DNA from: an uncultured virus (IMG/VR IMGVR_UViG_3300031227_000031)
Taxonomy: Duplodnaviria > Heunggongvirae > Uroviricota > Caudoviricetes
Virus record (IMG/VR): IMGVR_UViG_3300031227_000031
Length of the DNA: 64,000 nucleotides
Strand: one strand, 5' to 3'
This document shows, piece after piece, positions 37,319 through 63,986 of the stretch (the stretch's first letter is position 1; every line of letters starts with the position of its first letter). The notes below the pieces were generated by a model. It was given only the letters and a program-made list of their open reading frames with translations. It was not told the origin of the DNA and did not search any database. The position numbers and the translations under genes are program-made.

Positions 37319-38968
37319 TTAACCATATAATCCTCGCTTGTGTGGTTTAATCTTGGGTTGATTCCATCCAAAATTGCTTAGTGCAAAATAATGGAGTAGG
37401 TCGGGAAAATGTGTGTTTAAATCCTTTGGTTTCTCAACGGGGTCACGATCAACTTTTGTGCGGTACTCGTCCCAAACATAATGTTCAATCTGATAAATAC
37501 ATTCTTTCAAATCTTTGGCAACAACCAACCTGGGATGATTTATGAGGGAAACAGGTTGACTTTTTTCGTACATCAAAAGTTTCGCAACTGCTTTACGCCC
37601 GACTTCTTTATGATCATCCCCAAATGAAAACCGAATGGGATACTGTATTTCACGGCTGGACTCTTCAAACTCATCACGAACAGTTAATCCTCGATTGGCA
37701 TAACGCTTAGGCCCGAAGTTCGGGTCCATGACTCTGTTAAGAACACGTTCACCTGCTACAAGTTCGACTTTCTTAATGTGCAAAACAGCATCTTCAATTA
37801 AACAATTAGCCAACCATGCTTCACGGTACGCCCAGTACTGTTCAGCTTCATCAATCGCAATCCAGATGAGTGCGTGAGGATTCCGGTCATGCGGGTCAAT
37901 CAACATTATACGAGGCCAATGTTTCGGCGGTTCACCATCAACGAGAACATTGTTCTTACCACTAACCCAAATCTTGCGGTCAAAGGTATGAATGTTCCTG
38001 TCCCATTCCTTCCATACACGTCCGGCGAGGTAACGGAACTTCCCGTGCATACGAGTTTCACGTTCTTCTTCCGTCAACTTCTTCTCGAATTTGCGAATGG
38101 CGGACTCTTTTAATCCAATAAGTTTGTTAGTTAAAGGATTGAGCCTCTCACTATTATGCCGCATATCGCAAATGTAACTGTCAATATTCTCGTCTTTAGA
38201 ATTGTATACTTCGTCAAAGAGCCATGGTTCCTTAAGGGGTGTTAAAGCGAAAAGAGTAATCCCATCACGATCAACAAGACCGCGAGTTGCAGCAATGTAT
38301 AGATCACGTGGGGGTGGTTCATCAAATACTATCCAATCTTGGTCTGACCCTTCAGCAGCTTCGGTCTTCTGCTCGTAGGTCTGAATGTCGAAATAAGAAA
38401 TCCGTCCGTCTTTGAACTTAATGTACCAATGGACTTCGGCACCCTGGTTATTCTTCTTCGGCGGGCAAATGTAACAGTCTTGAGGTAAAAGTTCGTGGAG
38501 TTTGTCCGTGATGACTTTACAGGGGTTATCGAAGTTCTTGACGAAGATTCGGCCTTTAGTCGGACGTCCCCATTGTTTTCCGGTGTACCATTTGGGATAA
38601 TACCCGGTTGTGAACATCGAGATACAGAATACCGTGGCTGTGGTCTTACCGGAACGATTTGACCCAAAGAACGCTTTAGTATGTGCGTTTGAGTTTATGA
38701 AGAAGAACTGAGGACAACCCTGAATTGTATGTTTCTGGCTATCGTATGTTTCGTACTCGAGATTAACGGTATCGCATTGAGTCCCATCACAATTCCGCTG
38801 GTGCGGCCAAAAATACTTAATCGGGTTCGTCTTGATCCTCTGGTCGAGAGCCTGTTGAATCTGGATCAATTCCATCAAGTCCTGCTCGCCCATCTTCGTC
38901 AAAATCTCCTCGGACAGTTCGGTACTTGAGGATAAGTTCTTTTTTTCGTTGTTTGAGGTCGCCATCAC
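37319..38968 (-). CDS. terL: Terminase large subunit
   Basis: GSNRSGKT Walker A, VFDEPP Walker B, LTPL coupling motif, IDPH and HFPDLLHY nuclease motifs. Confidence 0.93.
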   Translation of the reverse strand: MMATSNNEKKNLSSSTELSEEILTKMGEQDLMELIQIQQALDQRIKTNPIKYFWPHQRNCDGTQCDTVNLEYETYDSQKHTIQGCPQFFFINSNAHTKAFFGSNRSGKTTATVFCISMFTTGYYPKWYTGKQWGRPTKGRIFVKNFDNPCKVITDKLHELLPQDCYICPPKKNNQGAEVHWYIKFKDGRISYFDIQTYEQKTEAAEGSDQDWIVFDEPPPRDLYIAATRGLVDRDGITLFALTPLKEPWLFDEVYNSKDENIDSYICDMRHNSERLNPLTNKLIGLKESAIRKFEKKLTEEERETRMHGKFRYLAGRVWKEWDRNIHTFDRKIWVSGKNNVLVDGEPPKHWPRIMLIDPHDRNPHALIWIAIDEAEQYWAYREAWLANCLIEDAVLHIKKVELVAGERVLNRVMDPNFGPKRYANRGLTVRDEFEESSREIQYPIRFSFGDDHKEVGRKAVAKLLMYEKSQPVSLINHPRLVVAKDLKECIYQIEHYVWDEYRTKVDRDPVEKPKDLNTHFPDLLHYFALSNFGWNQPKIKPHKRGLYG

Positions 38969-39404
38969 TGTATTCCCTCATCGCTCCGATAAGTTCTCCG
39001 AAGAGATGTGGTTTTTTCTCCATTTCCTCTCTGGCTTCCGCTTCGATCTGGTTCAGTCTGTGCGCGAAAGAAAGAAATTCATCACGTTGCACTTTGCTCG
39101 TTAATGGGTTTATTTTTATACGGTTCATCAACTTCTTTCGGATTTGCTCTTTGTCTTCGAGCCGAACACGTTTGTTTGCAATAGGGACCTTTTTTATATC
39201 TGCATAGAATAGAGTCCTGAAATGGTCAATATGGTGTTGATACTTTTTTGCCCGACAAGTATCCCATATTGATGAAGGTGAAATCTCGATGGTATAATTC
39301 TTGTGAATTGCATTACTGATTTCTTTGTCAGAATTCCCCTCGGCGTGAAGTCTGAGCGCAAACATTCGTTGCTCATGGTTCATCTTTGGGGTATTATGAC
39401 TCAT
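38817..39404 (-). CDS. Terminase small subunit (DUF2280-like HTH)
   Basis: N-terminal HTH; VPIANKRVRL motif; upstream of terL. Confidence 0.7.
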   Translation of the reverse strand: MSHNTPKMNHEQRMFALRLHAEGNSDKEISNAIHKNYTIEISPSSIWDTCRAKKYQHHIDHFRTLFYADIKKVPIANKRVRLEDKEQIRKKLMNRIKINPLTSKVQRDEFLSFAHRLNQIEAEAREEMEKKPHLFGELIGAMREYSDGDLKQRKKELILKYRTVRGDFDEDGRAGLDGIDPDSTGSRPEDQDEPD

Positions 39405-39729: not shown

Positions 39730-40581
39730 ATTAAATCTCCTCGATTATAACTCTGATTTTCTTGTATTTCCAAAACGACCCTTTCGGCTCATTCTTGAAT
39801 ATCTTGTTAAGGTACAATTCCCTTGGATGATCAGTGACCGAATTCATGAAGACCATATGCCAACTCTTGATTATCCACCCAATTCTTACTTTGCGCTTTT
39901 TCTTATCCATTTGAGTTGCTTTGTTTTGGGACTCATTTTCTTGTCCGTATATTCTCTTTACACTTATTATAAAGTGTATAGGATTTATACGTATAAGTCA
40001 AGGAGAAATTTAGTACCTCAGTTTGCCTTTTTAAAAGGAATGAGTGGGGATTTGACGAGAGGCACTCATGAAGAGTTTACGGTATTACCTGCCCAGTAAG
40101 ATAGTTCACCATCTCAACTCGTATAGTCACCCCACAAGTTCGTCAACTACGAAGGAGCATAATTTCAGCTTGGATTAGTTAATCCCTAACTCCGTGCGTT
40201 ATCTATTCCGCCATCATTCCTTATATTTTTATCCTACCACAACTTTGTCCGCGCGTAAAGAGGAGATTGCTGCCTTCGGTGCTCCGCACAAAAAAAGCAA
40301 AAGAAACAGCAAAAACAAAAGCAAAAACCGCCAAAGAAAAACGCGCGCCAAAAACACGGCCAAATCCCGAAAAACCCGAAAAGAATCCGGCGGAAAATTT
40401 CGGCAAGGTACTTCATGCCCCAACTACCCCCACCAGAAACCCAACCATAACTAGGAAAAGAATGGAGGAGGAATTATTTACTAGGTACTTCATACACTTG
40501 AGAACTCGAGGGGAGTCGGACCCTATAGTCATATATACACAGCTAACCCCCATGGGGGATTTCGCCATTTCCCATAGTACA

Positions 40582-40609
40582 ATTTCCTATAATATACATT
40601 ATGTCAACT
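40582..40609 (+). other. dif-like XerC/XerD recombination site
   Basis: ATTTCCTATAA-TATACA-TTATGTCAACT, 11-6-11 layout close to chromosomal dif (recalled B. subtilis ACTTCCTAGAA-TATATA-TTATGTAAACT). Confidence 0.85.
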
Positions 40610-40740
40610 CCACACAGGGGGATCAGGGGTCCGGGGTGTCCAGTACCCCTATACTCCCGGGGATCATGGCTCTCGCCGGGTTAATTGGGTATACTCACAA
40701 AGTATGTCCTATCATACACCCCCTTCCATTGTCCCCCCTT

Positions 40741-40810
40741 GTTCTGGTATGTCCAGGTATGTCATGGTATGTACTGGTAAGTCATGGTATGTCAATGTAT
40801 GACTATGTAG
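40741..40810 (+). repeat. Seven degenerate 10-bp tandem repeats (consensus GTCATGGTAT)
   Basis: gttctggtat gtccaggtat gtcatggtat gtactggtaa gtcatggtat gtcaatgtat gactatgtag. Confidence 0.85.
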
Positions 40811-41170
40811 TAAGCATGAGTATTGGGATGGGCTTGGTTTCCTTTGTGTGATTGGTGTCCGCTAGGGTGGGGAGTGTGTTATTATATAAGGGAAGATTGG
40901 GCGCTTTTGGATGGATATTGGAGGGCTGAGTATGCCGGCTGAGTGTGACTATGATCGAGCTGTTATACTTGGCCCCAGGATGCCCCAGGTTGCATGATTG
41001 AGGGCGTGGCAAGGGTAGACTATGTCTTTTCCGCGCTTGTTTCGGGGATTGGTTGTCGTTTGGGTTGTCATTGTTTCCGCGCTTCCTTTGCGCTGTCTTT
41101 GTTCTGTCTTTGTGCTGTATTTTGCATGATATTTAGTTTAAACTTCATGCAATTTATTTTATAATATCTC

Positions 41171-41237: not shown

Positions 41238-41480
41238 ATGAAGATGAACAAAGAATCAACAAAGGTCAGGAAATTCCAGGCAGATCTGGACATCGAGATC
41301 ACATATATCAATAGAGAGGTCGAGGGCGAAAGGAACCGAATCGATAATGAAGTTAAGGATCTTGAAAATAAGATCTCTCGATTATGTGTCGCCAGGGATA
41401 GTTTGATTGAAAAGAAGATCAATCGTACAAAGTTGGTCGAAGCTGAATACGAAAAAAATGTCGCGCAGTGGGAATCATGA
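41238..41480 (+). CDS. Early coiled-coil protein
   Basis: First ORF of the rightward arm. Confidence 0.6.
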   Translation: MKMNKESTKVRKFQADLDIEITYINREVEGERNRIDNEVKDLENKISRLCVARDSLIEKKINRTKLVEAEYEKNVAQWES

Positions 41481-41776
41481 AAGTTGAAAACATGATAAGC
41501 AGTAAAGGAAACAAGGTTGCAAATCAATTTACTGTTTCGTTTAGTGGGCCTAATAACTGGATGGATGGTACAATAACCGGAAGTGGTACAGCTTTTCAAT
41601 CTTATAAGTCTGTTATTGCTTTCAAGGAATACACCGGAAAAGTTTATCTTGATAAAAACACATGGGATTACAGCGTAACAACTGGTAAATATCGTAATAT
41701 ATTCTTAGGCGAAAACAAAAAAGAAACAGAGAAAAAGATTGCTAGCGGAGAGTATATACTAGCTGATCTTAACTGA
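41477..41776 (+). CDS. Conserved-type early phage protein
   Basis: FQSYKSVIA...WDYSVTTGKYRNIFL. Confidence 0.7.
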   Translation: MKVENMISSKGNKVANQFTVSFSGPNNWMDGTITGSGTAFQSYKSVIAFKEYTGKVYLDKNTWDYSVTTGKYRNIFLGENKKETEKKIASGEYILADLN

Positions 41777-42300: not shown

Positions 42301-42513
42301 TATCAGACAGAGTTTAACTCATCACTCATTAAATAATACCGATTGACACTTGTATAACCTTAATTATGGAGTATTATATTAATTAGGGTAGGAGATTTCG
42401 GGTAGGAGAATGAGAGAGAAGAGGGAAGAGAGAAGTGAGAAGTGAGAAGTGAGAAGAGTTCGAGAGAGATTTATTAATGTATTTATTAATGTAGGAGAAT
42501 AAGGGGGTTGATT

Positions 42514-46658: not shown

Positions 46659-46887
46659 TTAATCTTGACTCCCCCAGGAGGGAGATATATGGAGATTGAT
46701 AATGAAATCAACTCTTGAATCACTCCAACATTACAATGATGGGTTTATGAAGAATCCACCTGACCATCCGGCTGAACAGTCTGGGGCTGACCCTGAGTGT
46801 CCTAGATGTAAAGGCAGGGGTTGGGTACTTGTGCCTAATGGCGAGGATGATGTGGATAAAGATATTTGTGATTGTGTGGATTGTAGC

Positions 46888-47082
46888 TGATCTTTGAAAT
46901 CCGAGTGGTAGCAGGGTAATATACGAGTTATGATCGAGTCTAGGGTGCCTAATGACTCCTAAAAGGTATCCCTCGTTAAATCCCTCCCACTCGGTGAGAT
47001 ATGGGGCGGTGGCAACAAGTTATTAGTAGCACCTCCGATTTTGTCGGGTAGGGGAAGGCGCTAATCTACTTTTGCCCGCCCT
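46888..47082 (+). ncRNA. Candidate structured RNA region (boxA-like site plus two long hairpins)
   Basis: TGATCTTTGAAA; CCGAGTGG/CCACTCGG closing stem; GGGCG..GGCAA/TTGCC.CGCCC stem. Confidence 0.45.
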
Positions 47083-47112: not shown

Positions 47113-48054
47113 ATGGAAATGTGTAAATTCTTTTCGTTGGTGAGCAATGGTGATAGTAAACCTTTATATTTTGACGCAAAGGATAGGAAGAAAATACTTA
47201 ATAAAAAGTTGAAGTATGAAGCAGATAGCCATACCTCAATCGCTAATTTCTTTGGATATAAGGGCGAAAAAGAGGACACGCTAAACAAGTATGAATACAA
47301 CCCGATTACCAAGGTTTTTGAGATTGACCAGAAAAACAACCCTGTTGATGATTCGGCAGAGATTAAGATTTTCTGCGAGCAGCTGGACTTTAAAACCATT
47401 GTGCCAGAGCTAATCATTCATCCTATTGTTCATCCGTTTAAAGATTTCAAGACGACGGAAGTATCTAAGAAAGATATTGAGTTATTAAGGCAGTGGGATT
47501 CAGTCAGGGCTTCGATATGGGATTCGGTCGGGAATTCAGTCTGGGATTCAGTCAGGGCTTCGGTCGGGAATTCAGTCTGGGATTCAGTCAGGGTTTCGGT
47601 CAGGGATTCAGTCAGGAATTCAGTCAGGAATTCAGTCAGGGATTCGGTCGGGAATTCAGTCTGGGATTCAGTCAGGGCTTCGATATGGGATTCGGTTTGG
47701 GATTCAGTCAGGGCTTCGATATGGGATTCGGTCGGGAATTCAGTCTGGGATTCAGTCAGGGCTTCGGTCGGGAATTCAGTCTGGGATTCAGTCAGGGCTT
47801 CGATATGGGATTCGGTTTGGGATTCAGCCGGGGATTCAGTCTGGGCGTACACATCATCTTATTTTAATTTACCCGAATGGAAATACATCAAGCATAAGAA
47901 AGGGGAGAATCCATTTCAATCGTGTATTGATTTATGGAATAAAGGATTAGTGCCGTCATTTGACGGAAAGATTTGGCGGTTACATGGGGCAGAAGGGAAG
48001 GTTGTATTTGAGATTAGCAAAGAGGATTTAATTAGTAAAGTTGAGCCTGTTTAA
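47113..48054 (+). CDS. Phage protein with SVWD tetrapeptide repeats
   Basis: MCKFFS...DSHTSIA N-domain; 29 four-residue repeats; LWNKGLVPSFDG C-domain. Confidence 0.85.
   Translation: MEMCKFFSLVSNGDSKPLYFDAKDRKKILNKKLKYEADSHTSIANFFGYKGEKEDTLNKYEYNPITKVFEIDQKNNPVDDSAEIKIFCEQLDFKTIVPELIIHPIVHPFKDFKTTEVSKKDIELLRQWDSVRASIWDSVGNSVWDSVRASVGNSVWDSVRVSVRDSVRNSVRNSVRDSVGNSVWDSVRASIWDSVWDSVRASIWDSVGNSVWDSVRASVGNSVWDSVRASIWDSVWDSAGDSVWAYTSSYFNLPEWKYIKHKKGENPFQSCIDLWNKGLVPSFDGKIWRLHGAEGKVVFEISKEDLISKVEPV
47500..47847 (+). repeat. 29 x 12-bp coding tandem repeat
   Basis: Units tcagtctgggat, tcagtcagggct, tcggtcgggaat, tcgatatgggat. Confidence 0.95.
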
Positions 48055-50258: not shown

Positions 50259-50502
50259 AATGAAAAGTGTTGAAGAATTTGCGAGGGAGTTATATCAAGT
50301 TTATTATGGCGGGAATCCGGGCACAAATTGGGAAGATAGGGACTCTGATTTCATAATGTTTTGGATGAGATTAGCCACCCATGTCCGTAACCTCATCATA
50401 GATGGGAAGATCGAGGAGTATAAGAGAATAAAAGAAAACAAATTTCTAGTTTTTGTAATAGATGAACGTATAGCCGAATTCAAGGCCGAGAGGGAGAAAT
50501 GA
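50245..50502 (+). CDS. Hypothetical protein spanning the repeat/junction
   Basis: 3' part equals window 2-151 except for the last codons (AEREK* versus AEKDA*). Confidence 0.7.
   Translation: MGRDKMKSVEEFARELYQVYYGGNPGTNWEDRDSDFIMFWMRLATHVRNLIIDGKIEEYKRIKENKFLVFVIDERIAEFKAEREK
50352..50491 (+). repeat. Direct repeat copy 2
   Basis: Matches 1-140. Confidence 0.97.
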
Positions 50503-51176
50503 AAGAATTTTTGAATAAAATTATATATGGCGATTGCCTCGACGTGTTGAAAACAATCCCTGACGAAAGCATTGACTTGATCTTAACGGATCCGCCATAC
50601 CCAATTGATACAAACAATGGTACGAATCGGTTTTCGCAAGATGGTTGGATTGCCGGGAGTCAGGATTCTTTCGACGATAAATGGTATAACAATTTTCATA
50701 AAGTTGTATATGAGTTAGTGCGCGTGCTTAAAACCGGCCAGCATTTTTATTGTTTCGTTGACGAGAAGAACCTTTTTCTCTTGAAACCGTTGCTTGACAA
50801 ATACGCAATTTTTAAAAAAGTGATTGTCTGGGATAAAATTAATTTCGGCTTAGGCTACCATTACCGCAACGTCGTTGAGTACTGCCTACTTTATTCTAAA
50901 GGCAAATCGACGCGGCAGATTAACGATCAACCAAACCTCTACCGCGGACACAAGGGGAAAGAAACGTCGCATCCAACAGCCAAATCGTTTGGCATGGCTA
51001 AATGGCTGATCAGAAATTCTACCGAACCCGGGGAGATTGTGCTTGACAGCTATTGCGGGTCCGGGACCTTTCCAATTGCGGCTAAGGCTGAAGGCCGGAA
51101 ATATATAGGGATAGATAAAGAAAAAAAATGGTGTAACGTTACTGAGGCTAAACTTAAACAACAATGGATCTTTTAG
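50499..51176 (+). CDS. DNA methyltransferase (N6/N4, beta class)
   Basis: LILTDPPY, HPTAK and VLDSYCGSGT. Confidence 0.92.
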   Translation: MKEFLNKIIYGDCLDVLKTIPDESIDLILTDPPYPIDTNNGTNRFSQDGWIAGSQDSFDDKWYNNFHKVVYELVRVLKTGQHFYCFVDEKNLFLLKPLLDKYAIFKKVIVWDKINFGLGYHYRNVVEYCLLYSKGKSTRQINDQPNLYRGHKGKETSHPTAKSFGMAKWLIRNSTEPGEIVLDSYCGSGTFPIAAKAEGRKYIGIDKEKKWCNVTEAKLKQQWIF

Positions 51177-51421
51177 AAAGGCGTGCTTATGAATAAAGAT
51201 TTTATTTCAATAGAAAAGCTTCTTGATGAAAAGCTCGAGCACGATGAAAAAAAACGGTTAAGGAAAGTCTTAAGTTATATAACTGAAGTTGTCCGGGGGA
51301 AAAAAATATTCATGATCAAAGGTGTCTATTATATCCCAGAAGAAATTGATCAACGAATATTTCCTGAAAATATCAATTATATACTTGACGAAATTATAAT
51401 CAAAATCCGGGAGTTCTCGAC

Positions 51422-51790
51422 ATGAACATGATTAAAGTCTACATCGCAAGTCCGTATACTAAAGGCGATGTTGCAGTCAATGTAAGGCGTCAACTCGACG
51501 CTGCTGACACGTTAATTGATTTGGGTTTTGCTCCATTTGTTCCTTTATATTATCATTTTCAACATATGTTTTCACCAAAAGGTTATGAGGTTTGGACAAA
51601 ACTTGACATGGAATGGTTAAAAGCCTGCCATGTGTTATTGCGTCTTCCCAGGGGAAGTAAGGGCGCGGATGATGAAGTTGAATTAGCGAAAGCACAGGGG
51701 ATCCCGGTCTTTTACTCCATAAACGACATTGTTATTTGGGATGAAACGAGGAGTTTTATCACCGCCAAACCTAACAAGGCGCGTGTTTAA
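51422..51790 (+). CDS. DUF4406/DUF1937-like (nucleoside deoxyribosyltransferase fold)
   Basis: VYIASPYT...RLPRGSKGADDE..LA. Confidence 0.75.
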   Translation: MNMIKVYIASPYTKGDVAVNVRRQLDAADTLIDLGFAPFVPLYYHFQHMFSPKGYEVWTKLDMEWLKACHVLLRLPRGSKGADDEVELAKAQGIPVFYSINDIVIWDETRSFITAKPNKARV

Positions 51791-51824
51791 CATACACAAC
51801 TACACAACCAAAAAGGAGGTTCTT

Positions 51825-52025
51825 ATGTTACGGAACAAACGCGGACAAGCAGTTATTATTATGGGTTATGTTGTTGCGGGCCTTATCACGCTTATGTCGG
51901 CCCGGGCGATCCATGAAACGTCAAAGAATGGCATCCATCAACGTAATATGTGTATGGTGAAATGTCAGTTTTTTGGCAACAAGCAAGATGTTTGTTTGGA
52001 TCGTTGCGACAATAACGTCGAATAA
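51825..52025 (+). CDS. Small pilin-like protein with class III-type signal
   Basis: MLRNKRG/QAVIIMGYVVAGLITLM; SD aaggagg; four Cys. Confidence 0.5.
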   Translation: MLRNKRGQAVIIMGYVVAGLITLMSARAIHETSKNGIHQRNMCMVKCQFFGNKQDVCLDRCDNNVE

Positions 52026-52055
52026 GACAAATCCAGGAGCACTGTGTTGGCAGAG

Positions 52056-52091
52056 AAAACCCCCGTACGATAATCGCGCGGGGGTTTTTTT
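52056..52091. terminator. Bidirectional intrinsic terminator
   Basis: AAAACCCCCG...CGGGGGTTTTTTT between converging genes. Confidence 0.8.
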
Positions 52092-52314
52092 ATTTTGTGA
52101 TCTTTGCGGTAGCCGATCCACGACCGTATACACCCAGCGCCGCTAGGATGCCGAAAATAAATTCCGGGATCGCAGGCAAGGTTATGCATAGGGCGCCTTC
52201 GACACCGCAGTTCGCACCCAAAGAAATTACTAGAGCATTGTAAATAGCAATAATAACTCCGGCAGCACCAGCCCAGATTGCTTTACTTTGATACCATTTT
52301 TTATTAGCATCCAT
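52090..52314 (-). CDS. Holin-like protein (2 TM)
   Basis: KKWYQSKAIW...LGVYGR. Confidence 0.7.
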   Translation of the reverse strand: MDANKKWYQSKAIWAGAAGVIIAIYNALVISLGANCGVEGALCITLPAIPEFIFGILAALGVYGRGSATAKITK

Positions 52315-52639
52315 TATTTTCCTCCTTTTGTTTTGGTTTTGGGCGTTCAGCCTTCCACTCAGGATCAATAACATGCATCATGCTTTTGATAATGTACTGA
52401 AGTTTCTTGTATTGTTTATAATTAATTCCAGAAAGATCTCGCATGCTGGCTTCGACCTTAGTTGCTAAAGGACAATCTTTATCTTCACATACACGTTCTT
52501 GCTCGTCGACAATTATTGAGGTTAATCGACTTATTGTTTTAAAAGTTTTATAATTAAAGGCGTGGACAGCTTTGATCTCTTGAATTAACTGGTTAAATTG
52601 ATCGTGTCCAAGCTCGTATTTGAATTCTTCTTTTTCCAT
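52304..52639 (-). CDS. Hypothetical protein
   Basis: ORF. Confidence 0.6.
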   Translation of the reverse strand: MEKEEFKYELGHDQFNQLIQEIKAVHAFNYKTFKTISRLTSIIVDEQERVCEDKDCPLATKVEASMRDLSGINYKQYKKLQYIIKSMMHVIDPEWKAERPKPKQKEENNGC

Positions 52640-52641
52640 TT

Positions 52642-53559
52642 TTAGTAACCTGACACTTCCTCTACGTCAATAGGATTTTCTGTTTTTACATATAAGTTTT
52701 GCACATAGCATTTTTCTTCTGTTCCCGGTTGGCCTCTTCCATAAATTTGAATAACATCGTCTTTTTCAACAGTTACGTTACTTTCAGTTGTGGTTTTCCA
52801 TGCTTGCCCTACAACTTCCTTTAAAGAGCCAACAGCAATGTCATTTATATAAAGCTTCGACTGAGCATTCCACGTTGGGTCTTTCGATGAATATTGCCAA
52901 GTGATTGTGACGCTGCCTCCTCTAACCAAAGGCGACAATTGTTTAAGTTTTACAAAATCTGGGTTTATATTATTTTGTGGCGAAATGCGTTCCGTCGTCG
53001 CTGAAATTACAGTATATGTCGTTCCGTTTTGATATTTAGAAATAGTCTCAAGATCATCCCATTTTGGATTAGCCCCCGCGCCTTGTGTTTTTAAATACTG
53101 CCCTGATGTACCTGGGACTAAAGCTGAAATAACGCCGGTTGCTGAAAAATAGAAAATGTTGCCTTGCAATGTCGCAGCAAAGCTTGCGCCTAAACCGCCC
53201 CTGGCCACGGCCAGTGTCCCCGTAGCGTTGCCTAACGCAAGGTAATAAGATCCTTCTTGACCATCAAGCTGATCAGCGCTTTTTCCGGTCAACGTACTGG
53301 GGATATTGGCTAAAGGCATGTTCCCGGCACCGGCTGGGGTCCCGGATAATGTTGTCAAAGCGGATCCTGCGACTTTACTAGCAGTCGTAATTTGCGCAAG
53401 TTTTGTATCGACGATCGCTGCTGTAGGTGAGACTTTTGCGTTTGTAACCAATAAATCTGAATCAGTGCCTAAAACTATCGCAGCCCAATTTGCGCGTAGA
53501 TATCCAGGTGTATTAATTAATAGGCTATCATCAGCCGGTAGTGTTGCGTTCCAAGCCAT
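52642..53559 (-). CDS. Tail fibre protein (phage B)
   Basis: ADQLDGQEGSYYL, GTLAVARGG and GTSGQYLKTQG. Confidence 0.8.
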   Translation of the reverse strand: MAWNATLPADDSLLINTPGYLRANWAAIVLGTDSDLLVTNAKVSPTAAIVDTKLAQITTASKVAGSALTTLSGTPAGAGNMPLANIPSTLTGKSADQLDGQEGSYYLALGNATGTLAVARGGLGASFAATLQGNIFYFSATGVISALVPGTSGQYLKTQGAGANPKWDDLETISKYQNGTTYTVISATTERISPQNNINPDFVKLKQLSPLVRGGSVTITWQYSSKDPTWNAQSKLYINDIAVGSLKEVVGQAWKTTTESNVTVEKDDVIQIYGRGQPGTEEKCYVQNLYVKTENPIDVEEVSGY

Positions 53560-53926
53560 TAGATATCACCTCTTTTTCTTTTTTTGCCGACGATTAGGTT
53601 TACCTACTCGTGGCCGAATTTTTGGTTTATCAGGTATCGTTGTTTGTTTTTGCGTCTGTTTTATTTTGCTCATATCAAACAATGTAACGCCATGATCTCG
53701 TAATTCTTGTTGCCAGCATTCAGTATGAAACGACATGCCTACGCAATGGTTCGCCGCATGTTCCGGGCTTTTAAATATCGGAGGTGTTTCCGCAAAATAT
53801 CTTTGAATAATTAAACATGGTTGCACGAAAACATAGCAAAGATCTTTGATCACCGGGCCGTCTTTATGTAAACAATTTTTACGATGGCAAATAGGAAGAT
53901 TTATTTGCACTCCTTGCTGGACATTA

Positions 53927-54181
53927 TCAGATTGTTCTTGCTTTTGCTTTAACATCTTTAACCTCCATTTGTTCTGCGGCACATGCGTGCCGTACCGAAT
54001 CATTGATTAATTCAATGATATATTTTGTATCAACGATTGTTTTTACTCCGACGCTATAAAGCTTTGTATCTATTTTGCCAGTATCATATTTGATTTGGTA
54101 TTGCACAACTCCGGAAACAAAATTTCCGTCATCATCAAATTTATAAATTAATGTACGAGGTAAAATAGTTTGTTTCTGCAT
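53927..54181 (-). CDS. Small tail-associated protein
   Basis: ORF with SD. Confidence 0.55.
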   Translation of the reverse strand: MQKQTILPRTLIYKFDDDGNFVSGVVQYQIKYDTGKIDTKLYSVGVKTIVDTKYIIELINDSVRHACAAEQMEVKDVKAKARTI

Positions 54182-54190
54182 AACAACTCC

Positions 54191-57100
54191 TTATTTTCCA
54201 TGGGCGTGCCAGCCGAATGTACCCGTTGCTAGCGTTCCATCAAGCTCATAAAGTTTCACCGTAAACCCTGTAGTAGACGGAATAACGCTAAATTTATGTG
54301 CATATCCAACACCGCTTGTAATGGTTATATTCACAGCCGGCGCCTCATGGAAAGTTTTCGTGAACGTTATTTCGTCACCATCAGCCGCAACAGTGACTTC
54401 CCCTGTTCCCTTATCATCAACATCTGGGATATCTGCCTGAACTGTTAATTGGCTGACTAAAATATTTGAGCCGAGATTTTCTCTGGTGACAGTCATGCGG
54501 ACCTGATAATACCGACAAATATGGTCGGCTAAAATCCAATCTTCCCAATCAGTCCACGTCACATTATCTTCTGAAGTCCGGACCTCAAAGGTTAAAGCTG
54601 ATGGTGCCTCGTATCCAGTAAATCTAAGCGTTTTTGAATCGTCAAATGCAGCCGAAGCATCATCATCCCAAGCTAAAGATGAAGTCGTTGTGGCAACTCT
54701 TAAAATAGCAAGGCGCGCGGTACAAACATACCCGATGTCGTATTGCGGGGTCGTATATGTTCCCGTTAATTTCCCCGCGGAAAGAGTGAGGTTGTCTCCG
54801 CTTTTTTCTGTGTCCGATTTCGTGCCTCCCCAAGCAGTGTGTTCGTCATTGTCATCAACGATGTTTTGAAACGGAATATTATCAACGGTAAGTGTCGCCT
54901 CAGTCGCGTTCTCGGAATAATTTCCGCTGTTGTCAATGGCTTTTATCCAATACGCCTGATCAGAACCGGTCCGGATATCGTTCAAATCCGCTTGTGCCCC
55001 GGCTAAATCAGCGCCGACAACATCGCCGGAGATCCATGATGCGCCTTTACGAATTTCATAACGCCGGACATCGACGTCTGCCACCGGGGTCCAGACACAA
55101 GATAATTTGTCCCGATACTGTTTTACGAGAAACGCTAAAACATCTGAGGGCAAAGAATCCTTGCCAATAAGAACCAACGCATCAGATGCCGTTCCGGTAG
55201 AAAGGATCCCCTCTTTATTCAAAGTCTTCACTTTAATTGTGTATGAACTTTCGATTTCAAGATTATGAGTTATGACAAAAGACGTTTTTGTTCGATGAAC
55301 GCTTGTTAAAAATGTATAATCGCCTCCGTCTTTACTGATCTCAAGCTGGTACCAAGCAAGCTGATCAATGCTGTTTTCTAGAGCCGCCCAGAATACTGTC
55401 ACGCTTGAAATATGTACGCCGTCATTATTCCGCCATCCGTCTTCAGAAAGCGTCACGGAATCGACATTATCGAGCGATGTGAAAGGATTATACGGGGATC
55501 CATAGTCCCAGCCATCGATCGATGCCCCGGGCGTATCATCAAGAATGCTGGAATTATACGCTTTGCAATTTATTTTAATTTTGCCTTCATCTGCCTCTTC
55601 AAACGACATCACACGGAACATGGCTTCTGTCCAGCCGGGATGCGAGTGCGTGACCGTAACGATATCCCCAGGCTCAACACAGATTGCATCAATAAATGCT
55701 TCAAAACTGCAAGAAATAGGGTTGATTTTGGTTTCGTATAATACCTGTTTGGCCCGGCGTAAGGCCTGTGATTGGCGGATTATCCCGTACATTTCAATGA
55801 CGTCTTCAATAATATCGCGGGTATCTTGATCGAGTTCGTCTTCAGCCCAAGCAACCCGATCTGGATTGTACCGCTCCAATGGTTCAATCCATTTTATACC
55901 GATTTTATTCGGGCTTTCTTCACTGGCGCCGTAGCTCCAAGAAAAAGAGTTTTCAAGAATATTGTCTTCATCAAAAGCAAAAGCCGCTGTTTCATCAGCT
56001 TTTTCCAACACGATCTTGTATCCACTCCCGCTGGGAAAAATATAGCCGTTGCAAGTGCTCAATATTTCTACGATATTTTCAGCAACAGACCGTTCTTCAT
56101 CAAAAATATAGTCAAATCGGTACCGTGCCTCAGTGCCATCGGCTCCGTCATCGACCAACCCTTCACAATAATCATATGTAGATCCAAACGAGGATGCATC
56201 AAGATCGTCTTCACTTAGCCCGGCACCGCCACGTTTACGGCTGAGTATCAAATAATCACGTAGGATAGCGATAGGGTTGCGTGAAAAGGTCGAACCCAAC
56301 CATGTACTCCCAGAATACGTTTTTATTTTCCTGCCGCTGAGTTTCGCCCCGGCTGTAACATTTCCGCTTAAACCATCGTTTGCGACAATGGTTAATGCGG
56401 AGTATGTTAAATTTTTCATACCATGAACAATGCTAGCTGCGCGGCTATCAACAACTTGCGTGGCGGTACCTAGGTAATTGTCGTATGAGCAATCAGTGTG
56501 AACAGAATCGATTGTTTCTTCATTAAGTTCAACATCTTCAATCGCTTGGCATTCGCCTTCACCATAAACGAGGAACCGTTTAACTGTTGGGCCCGGATCC
56601 GATTGCCAAATGATGTTGCCGCCAATAAGTAAGGGACCACCATAAATTAAAGGAACAATACCATCGTTTGAATAAGTGTTTGTAATCTCTTTATAACGGG
56701 AAGATGTAGTTGCACTTTTTTTTCTTAATTTCCGCGCTTGTTGAGCCGAAACAACTGCGGAATATACGCTATAAGATACTGCCGCAAAACCTAAGACCAT
56801 AGCCAAGTTGATACCAAAAGACGCAAATCCTAAATCAACGACGGCAAAAAATGTTGTAAAAATGTCTTCAGCCGTTCCTGGAAGAATAATTTCTTTTTTT
56901 CCTTTTGTGTGAACACCACCGACAAACGCATGCTTCCAATCAAAATTAAGTTTAACAATCCTGCTTTTTCCAAACCGTGAATTGATCTCAAGGAACTGAT
57001 CGTATCCTAAAAATATGCCAGCGTGCACATGCCGGCCATCAAAGAAAACAGCGACGTCATCTGGCTCAAGCTCTTCGTATGGGAATTTTAAGAAATATTT

Positions 57101-57292
57101 TTTTGCTGCTTCAAGATTATTTTTATTCTCTTCTATATCGTCAGGGATTATGCATTTTATGCCTTTTATTTTTTCAAGATATAAAGCGCATAAACCAACA
57201 CAGTCGCACCCATCAACAGCTCGGCCTTTTTGTTGATACTTTATTCCAACGAGGCGGTTTATTGGTTTAGTGTTTTGTTCAACAAGAATCAT
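54191..57292 (-). CDS. NlpC/P60-fused tail tip/host-specificity protein (gpK-like plus gpJ-like, FN3)
   Basis: GR..DGCDCVGL...HAGIF; VPLIYG...GNIIW; RNPIAILRDYL; EPGDIVTVTH. Confidence 0.88.
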   Translation of the reverse strand: MILVEQNTKPINRLVGIKYQQKGRAVDGCDCVGLCALYLEKIKGIKCIIPDDIEENKNNLEAAKKYFLKFPYEELEPDDVAVFFDGRHVHAGIFLGYDQFLEINSRFGKSRIVKLNFDWKHAFVGGVHTKGKKEIILPGTAEDIFTTFFAVVDLGFASFGINLAMVLGFAAVSYSVYSAVVSAQQARKLRKKSATTSSRYKEITNTYSNDGIVPLIYGGPLLIGGNIIWQSDPGPTVKRFLVYGEGECQAIEDVELNEETIDSVHTDCSYDNYLGTATQVVDSRAASIVHGMKNLTYSALTIVANDGLSGNVTAGAKLSGRKIKTYSGSTWLGSTFSRNPIAILRDYLILSRKRGGAGLSEDDLDASSFGSTYDYCEGLVDDGADGTEARYRFDYIFDEERSVAENIVEILSTCNGYIFPSGSGYKIVLEKADETAAFAFDEDNILENSFSWSYGASEESPNKIGIKWIEPLERYNPDRVAWAEDELDQDTRDIIEDVIEMYGIIRQSQALRRAKQVLYETKINPISCSFEAFIDAICVEPGDIVTVTHSHPGWTEAMFRVMSFEEADEGKIKINCKAYNSSILDDTPGASIDGWDYGSPYNPFTSLDNVDSVTLSEDGWRNNDGVHISSVTVFWAALENSIDQLAWYQLEISKDGGDYTFLTSVHRTKTSFVITHNLEIESSYTIKVKTLNKEGILSTGTASDALVLIGKDSLPSDVLAFLVKQYRDKLSCVWTPVADVDVRRYEIRKGASWISGDVVGADLAGAQADLNDIRTGSDQAYWIKAIDNSGNYSENATEATLTVDNIPFQNIVDDNDEHTAWGGTKSDTEKSGDNLTLSAGKLTGTYTTPQYDIGYVCTARLAILRVATTTSSLAWDDDASAAFDDSKTLRFTGYEAPSALTFEVRTSEDNVTWTDWEDWILADHICRYYQVRMTVTRENLGSNILVSQLTVQADIPDVDDKGTGEVTVAADGDEITFTKTFHEAPAVNITITSGVGYAHKFSVIPSTTGFTVKLYELDGTLATGTFGWHAHGK

Positions 57293-58170
57293 CAGTAATC
57301 ACTCCTAAGCGGGATTGTATGGAACCCGCCGAAATTGCCTTCGTTATTATATGTGTTCTCGCAGGTATTCAAAGTCTTATCGCATCCGCGATAAACAACA
57401 TACTTTACACCGGCCACAACCGTTGAAGGCAACGCATAATAAAAATACAGAGTCCTTGTTGCTTGATCAAAATCTTTAATCAACCGTTTCTGACCACCGA
57501 GGGCGCCACCACCTAGGATCCCAATGTACCCGTGATTCCAGTGATCGTCAGCCTGGGTAAGCACGTTAGTATCAATTAATGTGGTCGTACTTCCTCCAGT
57601 CGCGGTCCCTGTGACTTTATTGACGCTTGAATTGCGGTTGACTTGACATAGGGATCTACCAAACTGCCAGGGGCATTGAATGCGGTATTTCCGGCCGGTT
57701 TTATAATTCAACGTACCGAATTTTGAAACCAAAGAAGCTGTCATTGTTTTTTTACTAGAATCGAACGCAATTTGATTAATTTTCCCATCCCATACGATTT
57801 TAACATTATCGGCATTGTCAAGTTTATCCCGGAATCCTAATCGAACAATGACACGTTTACCGCGAAAATCTTTATCTGCGGCCCAAGCTGCCATAGCGTC
57901 ATTAACATTACAAACGCTTAACTCCATCGTCGGGACTTTCATAGATGTTTCCCTGCCAGATGGCCCGCGTGTTATACCAAGGGCCATATATGTCGTAGGG
58001 ATACTTTCTGGATAGTTGAAGAAATCAATATTCTTGTAAAAACTTACAAAATGGTGAGTGTCGCCATCGGTCTCGGTTTGTGAGCCGAGAAAAAAATCGT
58101 AGAAATTAATGATGCGGGTTTCGAGTTTATTTTTTGCTCGATCAAAAGCGTCTGTTGATGTATAAGCCAT
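57292..58170 (-). CDS. Tail hub protein (DUF2163/BR0599, gpL-like)
   Basis: CPWQFG..LC, GCDKTLNTC and NFGGF. Confidence 0.88.
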   Translation of the reverse strand: MAYTSTDAFDRAKNKLETRIINFYDFFLGSQTETDGDTHHFVSFYKNIDFFNYPESIPTTYMALGITRGPSGRETSMKVPTMELSVCNVNDAMAAWAADKDFRGKRVIVRLGFRDKLDNADNVKIVWDGKINQIAFDSSKKTMTASLVSKFGTLNYKTGRKYRIQCPWQFGRSLCQVNRNSSVNKVTGTATGGSTTTLIDTNVLTQADDHWNHGYIGILGGGALGGQKRLIKDFDQATRTLYFYYALPSTVVAGVKYVVYRGCDKTLNTCENTYNNEGNFGGFHTIPLRSDY

Positions 58171-58821
58171 TTAAGCATTTCCTGCTCGTGGTTCATAAGA
58201 TGACCACCGGCATTCTTTTAACTCCACTCCGGCGTGAAGAAGTTGATAGGCGATTAATTTCCTGCTTAAATTAGCGTTAGCAAACCGCATAAGAAAATAA
58301 AATTCGTAGTCGATCGTCAGGATCCCGGAAGGTGCGGCAGTAAAAGTCGCATATGATTTTTCTGTGCCGAAATTATTCGATAATGTGCCTGAGACTTCAA
58401 CGCCGCCGACATAAAGCGTAAAATTTGTGCTGGTATCAACAGGGAACTCATCAAGCAAGTACGTTGTTTCAACTCCATCACCGTTGCCTAATGACTCGCT
58501 TGTGACCTGGAACTCATGGTTGACTTTGCAAAGGAACGATTCGTATTGGCCTTTATGTGAAACATAAAAATCCCAGATCGTATTCATTTCGGACTGAGTA
58601 TGATACTTTAGTTGTAATGAAAATGTGCGGAGACCCACGTCCCATCTAGCATCTCGGCGCTCGCGTCCACTTTCAGATTTTGTCATTATAGTTTTGAATT
58701 CAATAGATTCATCCATATCGAATTCAGGGCTTAGAGTAAGGATATCGTTCGACAAAGTTGTGGTTGTTGATGTAGTCGAGGTTGTTGAAGTGGTCGAGGT
58801 CGAGGTTGTAGAGGTGCTCAT
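58171..58821 (-). CDS. Distal tail protein (DUF2460-like) with Ser/Thr N-terminal tail
   Basis: SGRERRDARW, GNGDG and YEFYFLMRF. Confidence 0.82.
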   Translation of the reverse strand: MSTSTTSTSTTSTTSTTSTTTTLSNDILTLSPEFDMDESIEFKTIMTKSESGRERRDARWDVGLRTFSLQLKYHTQSEMNTIWDFYVSHKGQYESFLCKVNHEFQVTSESLGNGDGVETTYLLDEFPVDTSTNFTLYVGGVEVSGTLSNNFGTEKSYATFTAAPSGILTIDYEFYFLMRFANANLSRKLIAYQLLHAGVELKECRWSSYEPRAGNA

Positions 58822-60857
58822 CCGAACATCCTTTTCATTGTGGCGTTATATACTCCGCCACGATTGTTCATCGATCGGCTATAAATGCCTTCAATAACAT
58901 CCGGGTTCTGCGCCAAATAATCCCTAAACGATCGATTATCTATGGCATTAATATTAAAGACGTTTACCACTTGTGGCCCCCCGCCCATTGAATCTCCGCG
59001 GTTTAAACGATGAAGATTATTGGAACCAAGATTTCGCATCCCGGTCCGGTTCAATACGCCTTCCCCATCTTCAAGCATTGCAGGAACAATTCCACCACCT
59101 TGAAACCGGCGCACAGGGCCACCGCCAAGATACCGGTTAGCTGTAACGGTGCCACCACCATGGTAAGCTTTTCCCGCAAACGCCCCGCCAAAAATAGAGC
59201 CTAACACCGCATGTGCGGCCATGTCTGTGAAAATTTTTATGACAGTATTTCCAAACGCTGTAAAAGCATCAGTCAATTTATCAAGATCCCCCATGACAAC
59301 ATCGAAAAAGAGCGTGGACACATTTTGTCGTGCTGAATCAGCGAATTTTTTAACAGACAATTCCCAATCATAATTGACGATTTTCTTGAATTTATCTGTA
59401 AAGGTTTCTAGCCCCTTAATCAGTCCACCAGCAGGCCCGCCTTCTGCCCCAGTTTGTGTGTTTTTAGCTTTGTTCATTTTATTCTCAAATTTAGCGAAAA
59501 TTTTATCTAATTTTTCAAAAGGAGCAATTAAGTCTTGCGTTATTTGTTCGCCTAATCCTATACCTTCGTCGGGGAATAGTTTGTTCAGCCTTTCCATTCC
59601 TTGTGAAACAACATTCTTGAAGAACTTATCCTGGAACTCTTCGCCCGCAGCTTTTCCCATTGCGCCACCGGCTGAGTACCCGGCAGCTTTCATGTCTGCT
59701 TGAAGTTTTTTAGCGAGTGGAGAATCGGGCGAACTTAGTGTTTGTTTATAAATATCCCCAGCGTACTGTTTTGTAAAAGGTGATTGTCTATTCGCATTCC
59801 GCTGTATTTGTTCAGGAAGAGCAGCGGCGATTTCAGCAAAAACAGAAATAACCTGCATCCCCTTATATAAAGGATCTATAACATAATGCTTAAGGATAAC
59901 TCCTACACCAATGCCAAACTTCATAACTCCGGCTAGGCTTTGGTTAAAATTCGCGGCTTCATCTCCGCCTTCTTTCAACGCATCGCCCATTTCTATAAAC
60001 TTATTTTTGATTTCGATAATTGCAACGCGGACACTCGGCGCCATAATTAAGAATAAACCAAGCCGTTTTTGCCAATCATCAAAGACGTTACTAAGCTGCG
60101 CCACGGCCCCGGCATAAGTATAAATATCTTTAGCGGCTTTCCCTCCATGCTGTTTGTTGATAGCTTTTAATAATGCTGCAAACTTTGCAGACTCTGGAAT
60201 ATTTTTAGCGATACTTGTCCCGTACCTCGACATTGCGCCAATGTATCCACCAAAGGCTTTAGCCGTTATTGCGACAGCAGATTTTAGATCCATTTTCATT
60301 GCAACGGCAAAATCAATGGTAGCTTGTGTTGCGGCTTTAAGGTTGTTGGCGGCACCTTTTCCACCCATGGCCAAAAGCATATCCATGGCTTCCATTACGT
60401 CTTCTTCGCCGAAACGTGAGGTTTTCTGCATTTCAGCGGCGAATTTCTGAAACTCTTTGGAAGATGATTTACTAAACTTCCCAACCTTTTTTAAAGAAAT
60501 ATTCAAACGCGCAATGGCGTCTTCAAACCGTTGCGCTTTCTGCGTGGCTTCTTTTGTGAATTGAATTAATGGCCGTAGGGCAAATACCCAGACTAAAATA
60601 AGGTTACGGATCCGACCGATTTGGCCAGCAAGTTTACCGACTTCAAACCCGAAGGTCCGGGCATGTCGGCCAGCTTTCGTCATGGATTTACCCATTTTAT
60701 CAAAATCAAGGGCCATACCTTTCCCTTGTTTTTTGATCTCGACACCGGCTTTTTTTATAGCAGCAATTTGCTCTTTCGTCGCTTTGACGAATTTACCAGT
60801 CGCCGCATCCTTAAAAGAAAGGTATGTCACAAACTTATTTATGGTTTCATTTCCCAT
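58818..60857 (-). CDS. Tape measure protein
   Basis: Helical Ala/Lys-rich body; YHGGG...VPAMLEDGEGVL C-terminus. Confidence 0.85.
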   Translation of the reverse strand: MGNETINKFVTYLSFKDAATGKFVKATKEQIAAIKKAGVEIKKQGKGMALDFDKMGKSMTKAGRHARTFGFEVGKLAGQIGRIRNLILVWVFALRPLIQFTKEATQKAQRFEDAIARLNISLKKVGKFSKSSSKEFQKFAAEMQKTSRFGEEDVMEAMDMLLAMGGKGAANNLKAATQATIDFAVAMKMDLKSAVAITAKAFGGYIGAMSRYGTSIAKNIPESAKFAALLKAINKQHGGKAAKDIYTYAGAVAQLSNVFDDWQKRLGLFLIMAPSVRVAIIEIKNKFIEMGDALKEGGDEAANFNQSLAGVMKFGIGVGVILKHYVIDPLYKGMQVISVFAEIAAALPEQIQRNANRQSPFTKQYAGDIYKQTLSSPDSPLAKKLQADMKAAGYSAGGAMGKAAGEEFQDKFFKNVVSQGMERLNKLFPDEGIGLGEQITQDLIAPFEKLDKIFAKFENKMNKAKNTQTGAEGGPAGGLIKGLETFTDKFKKIVNYDWELSVKKFADSARQNVSTLFFDVVMGDLDKLTDAFTAFGNTVIKIFTDMAAHAVLGSIFGGAFAGKAYHGGGTVTANRYLGGGPVRRFQGGGIVPAMLEDGEGVLNRTGMRNLGSNNLHRLNRGDSMGGGPQVVNVFNINAIDNRSFRDYLAQNPDVIEGIYSRSMNNRGGVYNATMKRMFG

Positions 60858-61167
60858 GACGTTTCTGCGCCTCAATTTTAGCTATTTCATCTTCAACAAT
60901 TTCAAATGCTTCAATCAACTTTGCTGGCTGTTGCCCGGCATTTCCTGGAAACAACAATGCGTTGTTTTTATATTGCTGGTACCATCTAACATACATTACT
61001 GATAATGGCGTGACTGATTTTGCCGGACACTCTTTAAGTATTTCTCCATCAAGCTCAAATATATGCCCTTGTTTCATGGGGCATTTCATTGATTTTGGCA
61101 ATCGTGGGTTACATTCGTGGCATTGAATCTTATTTTGTCTTACCCAGACTGCCCGTCGGAGTTTTTT
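60847..61167 (-). CDS. Tail assembly chaperone, frameshift extension (gpT-like)
   Basis: -1 frame ORF overlapping the end of the gpG-like gene, just before the tape measure gene. Confidence 0.7.
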   Translation of the reverse strand, partial: KKLRRAVWVRQNKIQCHECNPRLPKSMKCPMKQGHIFELDGEILKECPAKSVTPLSVMYVRWYQQYKNNALLFPGNAGQQPAKLIEAFEIVEDEIAKIEAQKRHGK

Positions 61168-61610
61168 TCTTCCTCCTCCGACATACCTGATAATTCCCAA
61201 ATTTTACTTGACAACCAACGCAAAGCTTGCATCGGAATAGATTTGATGACGTCGTCTACTACAAAGTTTTGAGTAACTCCAAAAACCGTTTTATTCTCGG
61301 TTTTATACTCAACAGGTTTACCGTCACGATGATTAAACTTCTCAAACCCTTTCAGCCCAAGTTTAACGATAATAATATCTTGCTCAAGGTTAGATATTTT
61401 TGAATGGATATTGACTTTAACGTTTTCTGGGTTAGGCTTCTCGCCTTCTTTCACTTTGTCGTCGATGCTAACTTCTTGAACTACAATCTCCGCCATAAGT
61501 TGCGCTACGGTAACAGAGTCTAAACCCGTAATTTTCCATATTGTAGGATTGTTTTTATCCCACGGTAACGTTTCATTAATAATTTGACCAAATGCGACAG
61601 CGTTAATCAT
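61140..61610 (-). CDS. Tail assembly chaperone (gpG-like)
   Basis: Position; ends MSEEEEKN. Confidence 0.75.
   Translation of the reverse strand: MINAVAFGQIINETLPWDKNNPTIWKITGLDSVTVAQLMAEIVVQEVSIDDKVKEGEKPNPENVKVNIHSKISNLEQDIIIVKLGLKGFEKFNHRDGKPVEYKTENKTVFGVTQNFVVDDVIKSIPMQALRWLSSKIWELSGMSEEEEKNSDGQSG
61161..61167 (-). other. Programmed -1 frameshift slippery site A-AAA-AAC
   Basis: Minus strand gaA AAA AAC tcc at ...EEEKN. Confidence 0.75.
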
Positions 61611-61627
61611 TTTTTTCCTCCCCGATC

Positions 61628-62212: not shown

Positions 62213-62213
62213 A

Positions 62214-63221: not shown

Positions 63222-63236
63222 TTTACCCTCCTTTTA

Positions 63237-63683: not shown

Positions 63684-63737
63684 GTTATCGCCGCCTTTTT
63701 GTGTGCCGGGAGAAAACTACAATCGCTGGCGCCGGCA

Positions 63738-63986
63738 TTATTTTGTAATACGATCAATTTGTTTTTCGTTGGTTTTGATTTTTTGCTCAATGCACGAAAG
63801 TCTCCGTTCATAGCCGACCTCAAGATCTTGATGATGAAATAAATGATTTGTAAAATGCGCATCAAGTTTTGCAACATCTGTCTTTATGTCGGTTAAAATG
63901 AAAAGAGCAATCGTAATCAGTACTGGCGTAATAAGTCTAAACATTTGCGTAAAGTCCTCAACGAATCGTCGAAAGTTTTCATGCAT
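63738..63986 (-). CDS. Small membrane protein with coiled-coil
   Basis: One TM segment. Confidence 0.5.
   Translation of the reverse strand: MHENFRRFVEDFTQMFRLITPVLITIALFILTDIKTDVAKLDAHFTNHLFHHQDLEVGYERRLSCIEQKIKTNEKQIDRITK

Follow-up and report, generated by a model that had tools for sequence, protein, structure and literature searches.

The phage genome and its gene layout

The window (the whole stretch of 64,000 nucleotides of uncultured-virus DNA analysed here) includes a phage genome that closes into a circle of 50,351 nt (about 50.35 kb) through an exact 127-nt repeat (window 1-127 = 50352-50478). A genome size of about 50 kb is also supported by a syntenic relative rated complete (G002, 47,241 nt) and by homologue contigs of 45-52 kb. 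Past position 50478 the window is that of a different phage, which has only 144 nt in common with the circle. This common stretch (50352-50495) is 98.6% identical between the two and corresponds to the 3' end of a small gene; the remainder (50479-64000) is part of the second phage and carries GTA-like siphovirus tail genes together with an N6_N4 methylase. The TerL of the window is recorded on a 73,234-nt contig, about 9 kb of which falls outside the window. The window is not one genome. The contig is likely to be the product of an assembly path that led from the circle into a second genome by way of a shared k-mer.

The genes of the circle are arranged in two divergent arms:

39404 down to about 8.5 kb, minus strand: late genes, including TerL, an SU10-type portal, a capsid protein and tail fibres (Pfam, PHROGs)
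37322..38968, minus strand: large terminase TerL, used as the anchor for finding relatives (179 homologues at E <= 1e-20, many with PF03237)
38820..39404, minus strand: candidate small terminase terS, which opens the packaging operon (weak match to DUF2280, E 4.9e-5)
39440-39411, minus strand: sigma-70-like promoter upstream of terS (11/12 matches)
from about 40994, wrapping round to about 8.5 kb, plus strand: early genes (Pfam, PHROGs)

The candidate terS ORF (38820-39404) is retained in all six close relatives compared and is probably the small terminase gene. Some TerL homologues (P0011, P0032, P0086, P0089, P0095 and P0101) are 760-880 aa long and include intein or LAGLIDADG domains (PF14528, PF14890). 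Among distant TerL relatives in IMG/VR (loci L073-L085), many contigs start 700-800 nt upstream of TerL, which suggests that genomes of this branch have fixed ends just before terS. No cultured relatives were found above about 30% TerL identity.

The early arm includes genes for a Sak4-like annealase, a Cas4-like nuclease, an ERCC4 nuclease, an AAA_25 helicase, two DNA methylases and GroEL/GroES. The phage GroEL is located in the 5581-7200 / 7309-7659 region (PHROG E 1e-140) and has a weak GroES-like neighbour. An 83-84-aa protein in the same arm (3869-4117) matches only the C-terminal glycyl-radical end of NrdD. A similar small NrdD-like protein occurs in L234, an unrelated phage that also carries the site described below, where its gene (1432-1683) lies directly before terS. 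No tRNAs were found.

The dif-like site and its surroundings

The site occupies positions 40582-40609 and reads ATTTCCTATAA-TATACA-TTATGTCAACT. It has the 11-6-11 layout of a dif site, in which 6 nt separate two imperfectly inverted arms of 11 nt, and an inner ATAA/TTAT palindrome. The features in its neighbourhood are:

40280..40390, plus strand: low-complexity, A-rich tract left of the site, similar to one that adjoins the site in the viral record G413
40582..40592, plus strand: XerC-type arm, ATTTCCTATAA; base 2 is C (giving ACTTCCTATAA) in three of the four other metagenome runs and in the IMG/VR twin
40593..40598, plus strand: central region, TATACA (6 nt), one change from TATATA
40599..40609, plus strand: XerD-type arm, TTATGTCAACT; relatives have TTATGTTAACT
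40610..40616, plus strand: 7-nt flank, CCACACA; ACACACA in relatives, absent from bacterial sites
40730..40809, plus strand: iteron-like array of six to seven 10-nt repeats (GGTATGTCAt), 120 nt from the site

Few ORFs are found in the stretch of about 0.9 kb that holds the site (40100-40990) and separates the minus-strand terS/TerL genes from the plus-strand early genes. A G-rich inverted repeat is also present in the gap around it. Protein-level similarity to relatives is lacking in this stretch, in contrast to the conserved terS and TerL. The site is 1.18 kb upstream of terS, with its XerC arm towards that gene, and the cumulative GC skew reaches its minimum at the site, where the two gene arms diverge. 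The iteron array is likely to be an origin or an initiator-binding region, and the gap as a whole looks like an origin and control region. The iteron unit and the XerD arm have the sequence TATGTCA in common. This 7-8-mer overlap is counted against an Xer function of the site.

The 64-kb window contains a single match to a generic dif core (ATAA-N6-TTATGTNAA), and 100 dinucleotide-preserving shuffles gave none. The form TTATGTNAA of the XerD arm is that of the proteobacterial dif sites in the table of PMC2731167. A promoter reading of the site was rejected, since no sigma-70-like call overlaps it. Enrichment of DnaA boxes in the gap of the window was also rejected: two of the 68 near-matches of the circle fall there.

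Search for a phage recombinase

No tyrosine or serine recombinase and no transposase was identified in the 50.35-kb circle using Pfam, PHROGs and NCBIfam. The Pfam analysis included 104 ORFs (86 of these in the circle) and a further 18 overlapping ORFs; PHROGs was applied to the 86 ORFs of the circle and NCBIfam to 38 proteins of at least 130 aa. Among the 104 ORFs there is no Pfam match to XafT (DUF3653) or to FtsK-gamma. Partition, repressor and plasmid-maintenance genes were likewise not recognised using Pfam and PHROGs. A plasmid-like state is therefore undocumented, which counts against the reading that we favour below. A 313-aa protein (47113-48051), the one early product of any size without an assigned function, was considered as a possible hidden recombinase and ruled out. 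Its middle part is composed of about 20 tandem WDSVRASV/GNSV repeats and its nearest clusters are phage-only.

A preliminary description of this DNA had reported an 11-6-11 dif-like site in the non-coding gap between the divergent arms and no recognisable tyrosine or serine recombinase in the circle. Both observations are borne out, the former by the single core in the window against none in the 100 shuffles and the latter by the three profile collections.

Conservation of the site among relatives

Two relatives that carry the site were found among 80 metagenome-contig loci. In L153 (TerL 63% identical) it reads ACTTCCTATAA-TAATAA-TTATGTTAACT and is located 2.2 kb from terS; in L161 (TerL 57%) it reads CTGTCATATAA-TAATAG-TTATGTTAACT and is located 0.55 kb from terS. 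In both cases the site is upstream of terS and on the opposite strand to it, the same arrangement as in the window. In a three-way alignment, the site together with 7 adjoining nt (NCACACA) forms the sole conserved block in about 300 nt. When the comparison is anchored on the site, identity is 73-95% in the arms and 13-40% in the adjoining 100-nt flanks. Differences are confined to the central region, the outer XerC arm and position 7 of the XerD arm, a position that is also variable in published dif sites (table of PMC2731167). The first 8 nt of the flank are 75-100% identical among five lineages. Iterons are present in both relatives at the same place as the array of the window but with a different sequence: units of about 21 nt (TTCTTTACAGTTyATTrACAT) in L153 and AGACAATA units in L161.

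Absence from related phages had been named in the preliminary description as a ground for doubting the site. Here the answer is divided: of the six close relatives with enough sequence, three have the site and the other three do not. Sequence upstream of terS extends over 2.4 kb in L154 and 3.5 kb in L164, and in neither does a match to the generic core reach 11/12. Five relatives of 47-50% TerL identity, each with at least 2.7 kb of upstream sequence, are also without a site. G002 (47 kb) has no site anywhere, and its contig breaks inside the equivalent gap. At its end the contig repeats, in inverted orientation, the TTGACA-17-TATACT promoter region that precedes an HNH gene (46850-46925 and 47165-47241). 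This is probably a fold-back made in assembly, at the point where a dif-like site should lie.

Relatives in IMG/VR were obtained by TerL alignment of 31 among the 120 homologues listed, hand-picked for length and spread. None of the 79 non-twin loci scores at least 17 of the 19 arm positions. Two score 15-16/19, compared with two matches on a reversed-sequence control, and a dif-like core is present in L091 only. The IMG/VR twin (G001) is a near-identical fragment of 13.3 kb that carries the C form (ACTTCCTATAA) and is not independent.

Judged by these alignments, the site is under purifying selection in one phage lineage. It is also dispensable, and its function would be accessory, not essential.

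Occurrence in other phages

Viral contigs include 14 stretches with the C variant of the arms (10 distinct 28-mers, the twin included) and 68 with the T variant (55 distinct 28-mers). A reversed control gave two viral stretches compared with these 82, an excess of 7 to 34 times depending on the variant. The site in the window thus belongs to a large set of phage-borne sites whose arms are conserved and whose centres are free. None of the 13 non-twin C-variant loci shows resemblance to the window. Central regions ending in ATA are found in one of the 10 distinct viral C-variant sites and in 11 of the 68 T-variant sites.

A terS recognised by Pfam flanks the site in five of the nine distinct non-twin C-variant contexts (L017, L023 and L027 being left out of this count as duplicates) and in 7/65 distinct T-variant contexts; about 3% would be expected beside a random gap, which is a rough estimate. 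The site together with a CACAC flank occurs in two further phage lineages, in each case upstream of the packaging genes and with the XerC arm towards them. In L233/L236, which have an SU10-type portal, it is about 330 nt upstream of a terS-sized gene; in L234/L235, which have a P22-type portal, it is about 0.7 kb upstream of a GP3_package terS. Apart from the small NrdD-like gene, these loci show no protein similarity there to the window.

L161 (6691-6710, reverse-complemented) and L234 (3436-3455, site-oriented), two phages whose portals differ, both have a conserved pair TTATTAACA-NN-TTATCCACA no more than 90 nt from the dif-like site. We take TTATCCACA to be the DnaA-box consensus. This suggests a DnaA-dependent origin in L161 and L234.

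More than half of the T-variant sites (36/68) are within 1.5 kb of a contig end, compared with 18.8 expected under a uniform spread. One example is G413 (40,024 nt; loci L240 and L260), where the site is about 100-150 nt from both contig ends, inside imperfect terminal repeats that are identical to the right of the site and differ in the A-rich tract to its left. The large T-variant carriers G413, G414, G416, G426 and G427 have no TerL of the window's family. In another group of related viral contigs (L239, L248, L250, L258, L272 and L286) the T-variant site is located between 2OG-Fe(II) oxygenase genes or at the start of one, and not near packaging genes.

The tyrosine-recombinase domain PF00589 was found in none of 15 large T-variant records and in two of five C-variant records, so that 18 of the 20 large carriers are without it. 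The two that have it are proviruses in which the integrase is terminal and the site lies internally, far from it.

Matching sites in bacterial chromosomes

The arm cores (TTCCTATAA-N6-TTATGTCAAC) were found at 40 loci in 185,579 species genomes (one genome per species). As printed, the XerC arm ACTTCCTATAA is present in 15 of these bacterial sites and the XerD arm is identical to TTATGTCAACT in 32. According to the record titles, the loci belong to Bacillota (21), Nitrospinota (10), Acidobacteriota (3), Planctomycetota (2) and Bacteroidota (2), the remaining two being a Melainabacteria MAG and a Latescibacterota genome. The central region ends in ATA in 31/40, TATATA being the commonest (8/40).

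Three of the matching sites are 47-49% of the replicon away from dnaA, as expected of dif. These are in Planococcus (site at about 18 kb, dnaA at 1.614 Mb, replicon of 3.244 Mb), a Latescibacterota chromosome (site at 4.50 Mb, dnaA at 2.38 Mb, replicon of 4.54 Mb) and a one-contig Nitrospinales MAG (site at 2.62 Mb, dnaA at 0.68 Mb). A second dif-like site in a Nitrospinales MAG (L039) was dropped: it has a transketolase-family neighbour and is probably chromosomal or from a second strain.

A search of bacterial chromosomes with the 28-mer, proposed earlier, is thus successful for the arm cores, with their 40 loci, and unsuccessful for the exact central TATACA, which none of these has. The suggestion that the site may identify the host does not hold, since its arms are shared by at least seven phyla and the central TATACA was found in none of the species. 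According to the part of PMC3025954 available to us, by Kono et al., the Firmicutes dif profile fits many phyla, and the site therefore does not name a host. A search for related prophages using TerL gave one weak match in 401 sampled Bacillota genomes, which is uninformative concerning the host.

The site in salt-lake metagenomes

The stretch is present in 12 salt-lake metagenome runs. Logan contigs from four independent runs (X2-X5, at 3-8x word depth) were compared, a possible source run being left out. In all four, a contig bridges the site, with phage DNA on both sides and no loose end there. The sole variant within the site is a T to C change at 40583, present in three of the four runs and giving ACTTCCTATAA. 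Loose ends at 40291-40327, 41476-41508 and 42424-42456 were set aside as short shared or low-complexity stretches away from the site. The depth of the site-bearing contigs is not doubled; contig depth cannot settle the presence of a terminal repeat.

Integration at the host dif, a possibility raised in the preliminary description, finds no support here. Contigs bridge the site in four runs, no phage gene of the window's family is located within 1.5 kb of any of the 40 bacterial dif loci, and two proviruses have an internal site in addition to their own integrase. Phage sequence joined to host DNA at the site, which had been suggested as a check, was not seen in the contigs of the four runs, although contigs cannot exclude rare integrated forms.

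Possible functions of the site

In the reading that we favour, the site is a substrate for the XerC/XerD recombinases of the host, which would process the phage DNA itself (by monomerisation or cyclisation), and is not mainly an attP. We put the probability of this at roughly 0.5. The 28-mer would be a binding and recombination site for host XerC/XerD, kept by selection in a gap close to the origin and to the packaging genes. The phage has no recombinase of its own and would therefore rely on the host pair. Its Sak4, Cas4-like and ERCC4 recombination genes would produce circular multimers, and recombination between the phage's own sites would turn these into monomers. Alternatively, the site could serve to close terminally redundant DNA into a circle where it falls within the redundancy. 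Xer binding, the reaction and its benefit to the phage are all predictions from sequence, and multimer resolution is a plausible outcome.

Several observations bear on this proposal. If the recombining copies are the phage's own, they are identical by descent, and the arms would be constrained while the central 6 nt would be free to drift. A free central region is not expected if the partner is a chromosomal dif, because such a partner needs central-region homology. The internal sites in the integrase-bearing proviruses also point to processing of the phage's own DNA. The minimum in GC skew is not terminus-like and argues against chromosomal-type resolution guided by FtsK/KOPS. However, Xer recombination in B. 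subtilis is reported, in the part of PMC1914069 available to us, not to need FtsK analogues. On the strength of that account, a Bacillota-type site could work off the chromosome, and its position on the origin side need not be an obstacle. The position of the site upstream of terS fits cyclisation less well than that of sites just downstream of terS in other phages.

Another use of the same enzymes would be integration. Host XerCD might insert the circular phage into the chromosomal dif, the site acting as an attP of the IMEX type. The result would be a lysogen without an integrase, as is the case for CTXphi, VGJphi, gokushoviruses and tailless DJR phages. We consider this unlikely for the present phage. 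Like an IMEX, it is without its own recombinase, both arms are canonical, TATACA is a single base (on the XerD side) away from the commonest host TATATA, and the crowding of T-variant sites at contig ends could be caused by assembly branching at a recombination site. On the other hand, the central regions of most phage-borne sites are unlike all those seen in hosts, and the two proviruses carry the site internally alongside their own integrase. The bacterial dif loci without neighbouring genes of the phage family (40/40), the single, weak TerL match in the 401 Bacillota genomes and the lack of a Pfam match to XafT or FtsK-gamma argue in the same direction. The contigs of X2-X5, which bridge the site with no junction, add a weak argument, since contigs drop rare forms. 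In addition, the filamentous IMEX sites described in the available part of PMC3025954 have a longer, variable central region and a degenerate XerD arm. The departure of attP from dif that characterises them there is not seen here, where the arms are both canonical and 6 nt separate them.

It is similarly improbable that the site has nothing to do with Xer and is an operator, iteron or origin element for a phage or host replication protein, resembling dif by chance. The iteron array 120 nt away, whose unit includes TATGTCA as does the right arm, would fit such an element. In L153 both the iterons and the right arm contain ATGTTAAC, and a second copy of TTATTGTCAACTACA is found 20-45 nt away in L153 and L161. 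The conserved 7-nt flank beyond the arm and the pair of DnaA boxes near the site in L161 and L234 can be read in the same way. This explanation, however, accounts neither for the left arm nor for the exact 6-nt spacing. It is also at odds with the identity of ACTTCCTATAA in the majority form of the window, in L153 and in 15/40 bacterial sites as printed, with the presence of the site in phages whose early genes are unrelated, and with iterons that vary between relatives while the site does not. The lack of a sigma-70-like promoter call over the site argues against it as well. Finally, the site could be a neutral relic or a chance match, for example a captured piece of host DNA without function. 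Half of the close relatives do without it, and it is a single copy of 28 nt only. This explanation is very improbable given the core in 0/100 shuffles, conservation amid saturated flanks at 57-63% TerL identity, and the 7- to 34-fold excess of sites in viral contigs over the reversed control.

If host XerCD does act on these genomes, it would be an extra host factor in the replication or packaging of many environmental phages. Its action would account for the recurrent conserved non-coding element near terS, and the site would provide a sequence marker narrowing the host range to bacteria with matching Xer arms. A broader proposal, which we regard as doubtful at present, is that many recombinase-less tailed phages keep a host-type dif by their packaging or origin region and so outsource Cre/loxP-type cyclisation and monomerisation to host XerCD, with arms that track the host and a private centre. 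If true, this would mean that lytic-looking Caudoviricetes widely depend, in a way not described so far, on the chromosome-resolution machinery of their hosts; it would also be a possible host-range determinant and defence target.

Comparison with known Xer and phage recombination systems

Hijacking of Xer is textbook knowledge for plasmids and for small integrating phages (inoviruses, microviruses and tailless DJR phages). Phage P1 uses a single loxP site near its packaging start, at which Cre cyclises terminally redundant DNA and resolves dimers. P1 encodes its own recombinase, and loxP has a 13-8-13 layout. The single site near the packaging start is a feature common to P1 and the present phage; here, however, the enzyme would be that of the host. 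In full-text literature searches we found no description of dif sites in tailed, integrase-less dsDNA phages; bioRxiv 10.1101/633727, in the part available, concerns an inovirus.

The closest likeness in sequence is to the Bacillota-type ('Firmicutes') chromosomal dif, the substrate of XerC/XerD (CodV/RipX in B. subtilis), which has the same 28-nt 11-6-11 layout and, in 40 species, the same arm cores. The phage site differs in being carried on a 50-kb genome, at the divergence of the gene arms and the minimum in GC skew, and in having an extra conserved flank. A chromosomal dif is located at the terminus, as the only such site, and polar motifs converge on it; here, the genes diverge from the site.

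IMEX elements resemble the present phage in being mobile and recombinase-less and in carrying a dif-like site. They include CTXphi, VGJphi and TLCphi of Vibrio, gokushovirus and Bacteroidetes microvirus proviruses, and dif-integrating DJR tailless vibriophages (PMC5357621, PMC9226527, PMC7062461, PMC3091885, PMC12715192 and PMC9966536). As described in the available portions of these sources, they are small ssDNA or tailless phages integrated at dif. The present phage, in contrast, is a tailed dsDNA phage of 50 kb with canonical arms, and no integrated form was seen.

The plasmid sites cer (ColE1), psi (pSC101) and pdif of Acinetobacter (PMC5790767, PMC7399989 and bioRxiv 10.64898/2026.02.23.706985) are also alike. 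The phage site has in common with them a host-XerCD core on an extrachromosomal replicon by an iteron-type origin, with constrained arms and a private centre. At cer and psi, resolution selectivity is imposed by about 180 nt of accessory sequence, to which PepA, ArgR or ArcA binds. As at these two sites, the phage has an XerCD-type core on a circular replicon beside a likely origin, with iterons 120 nt away. The element in the window differs from these plasmids in being a virus with a full packaging and virion module and no recognised plasmid-maintenance genes.
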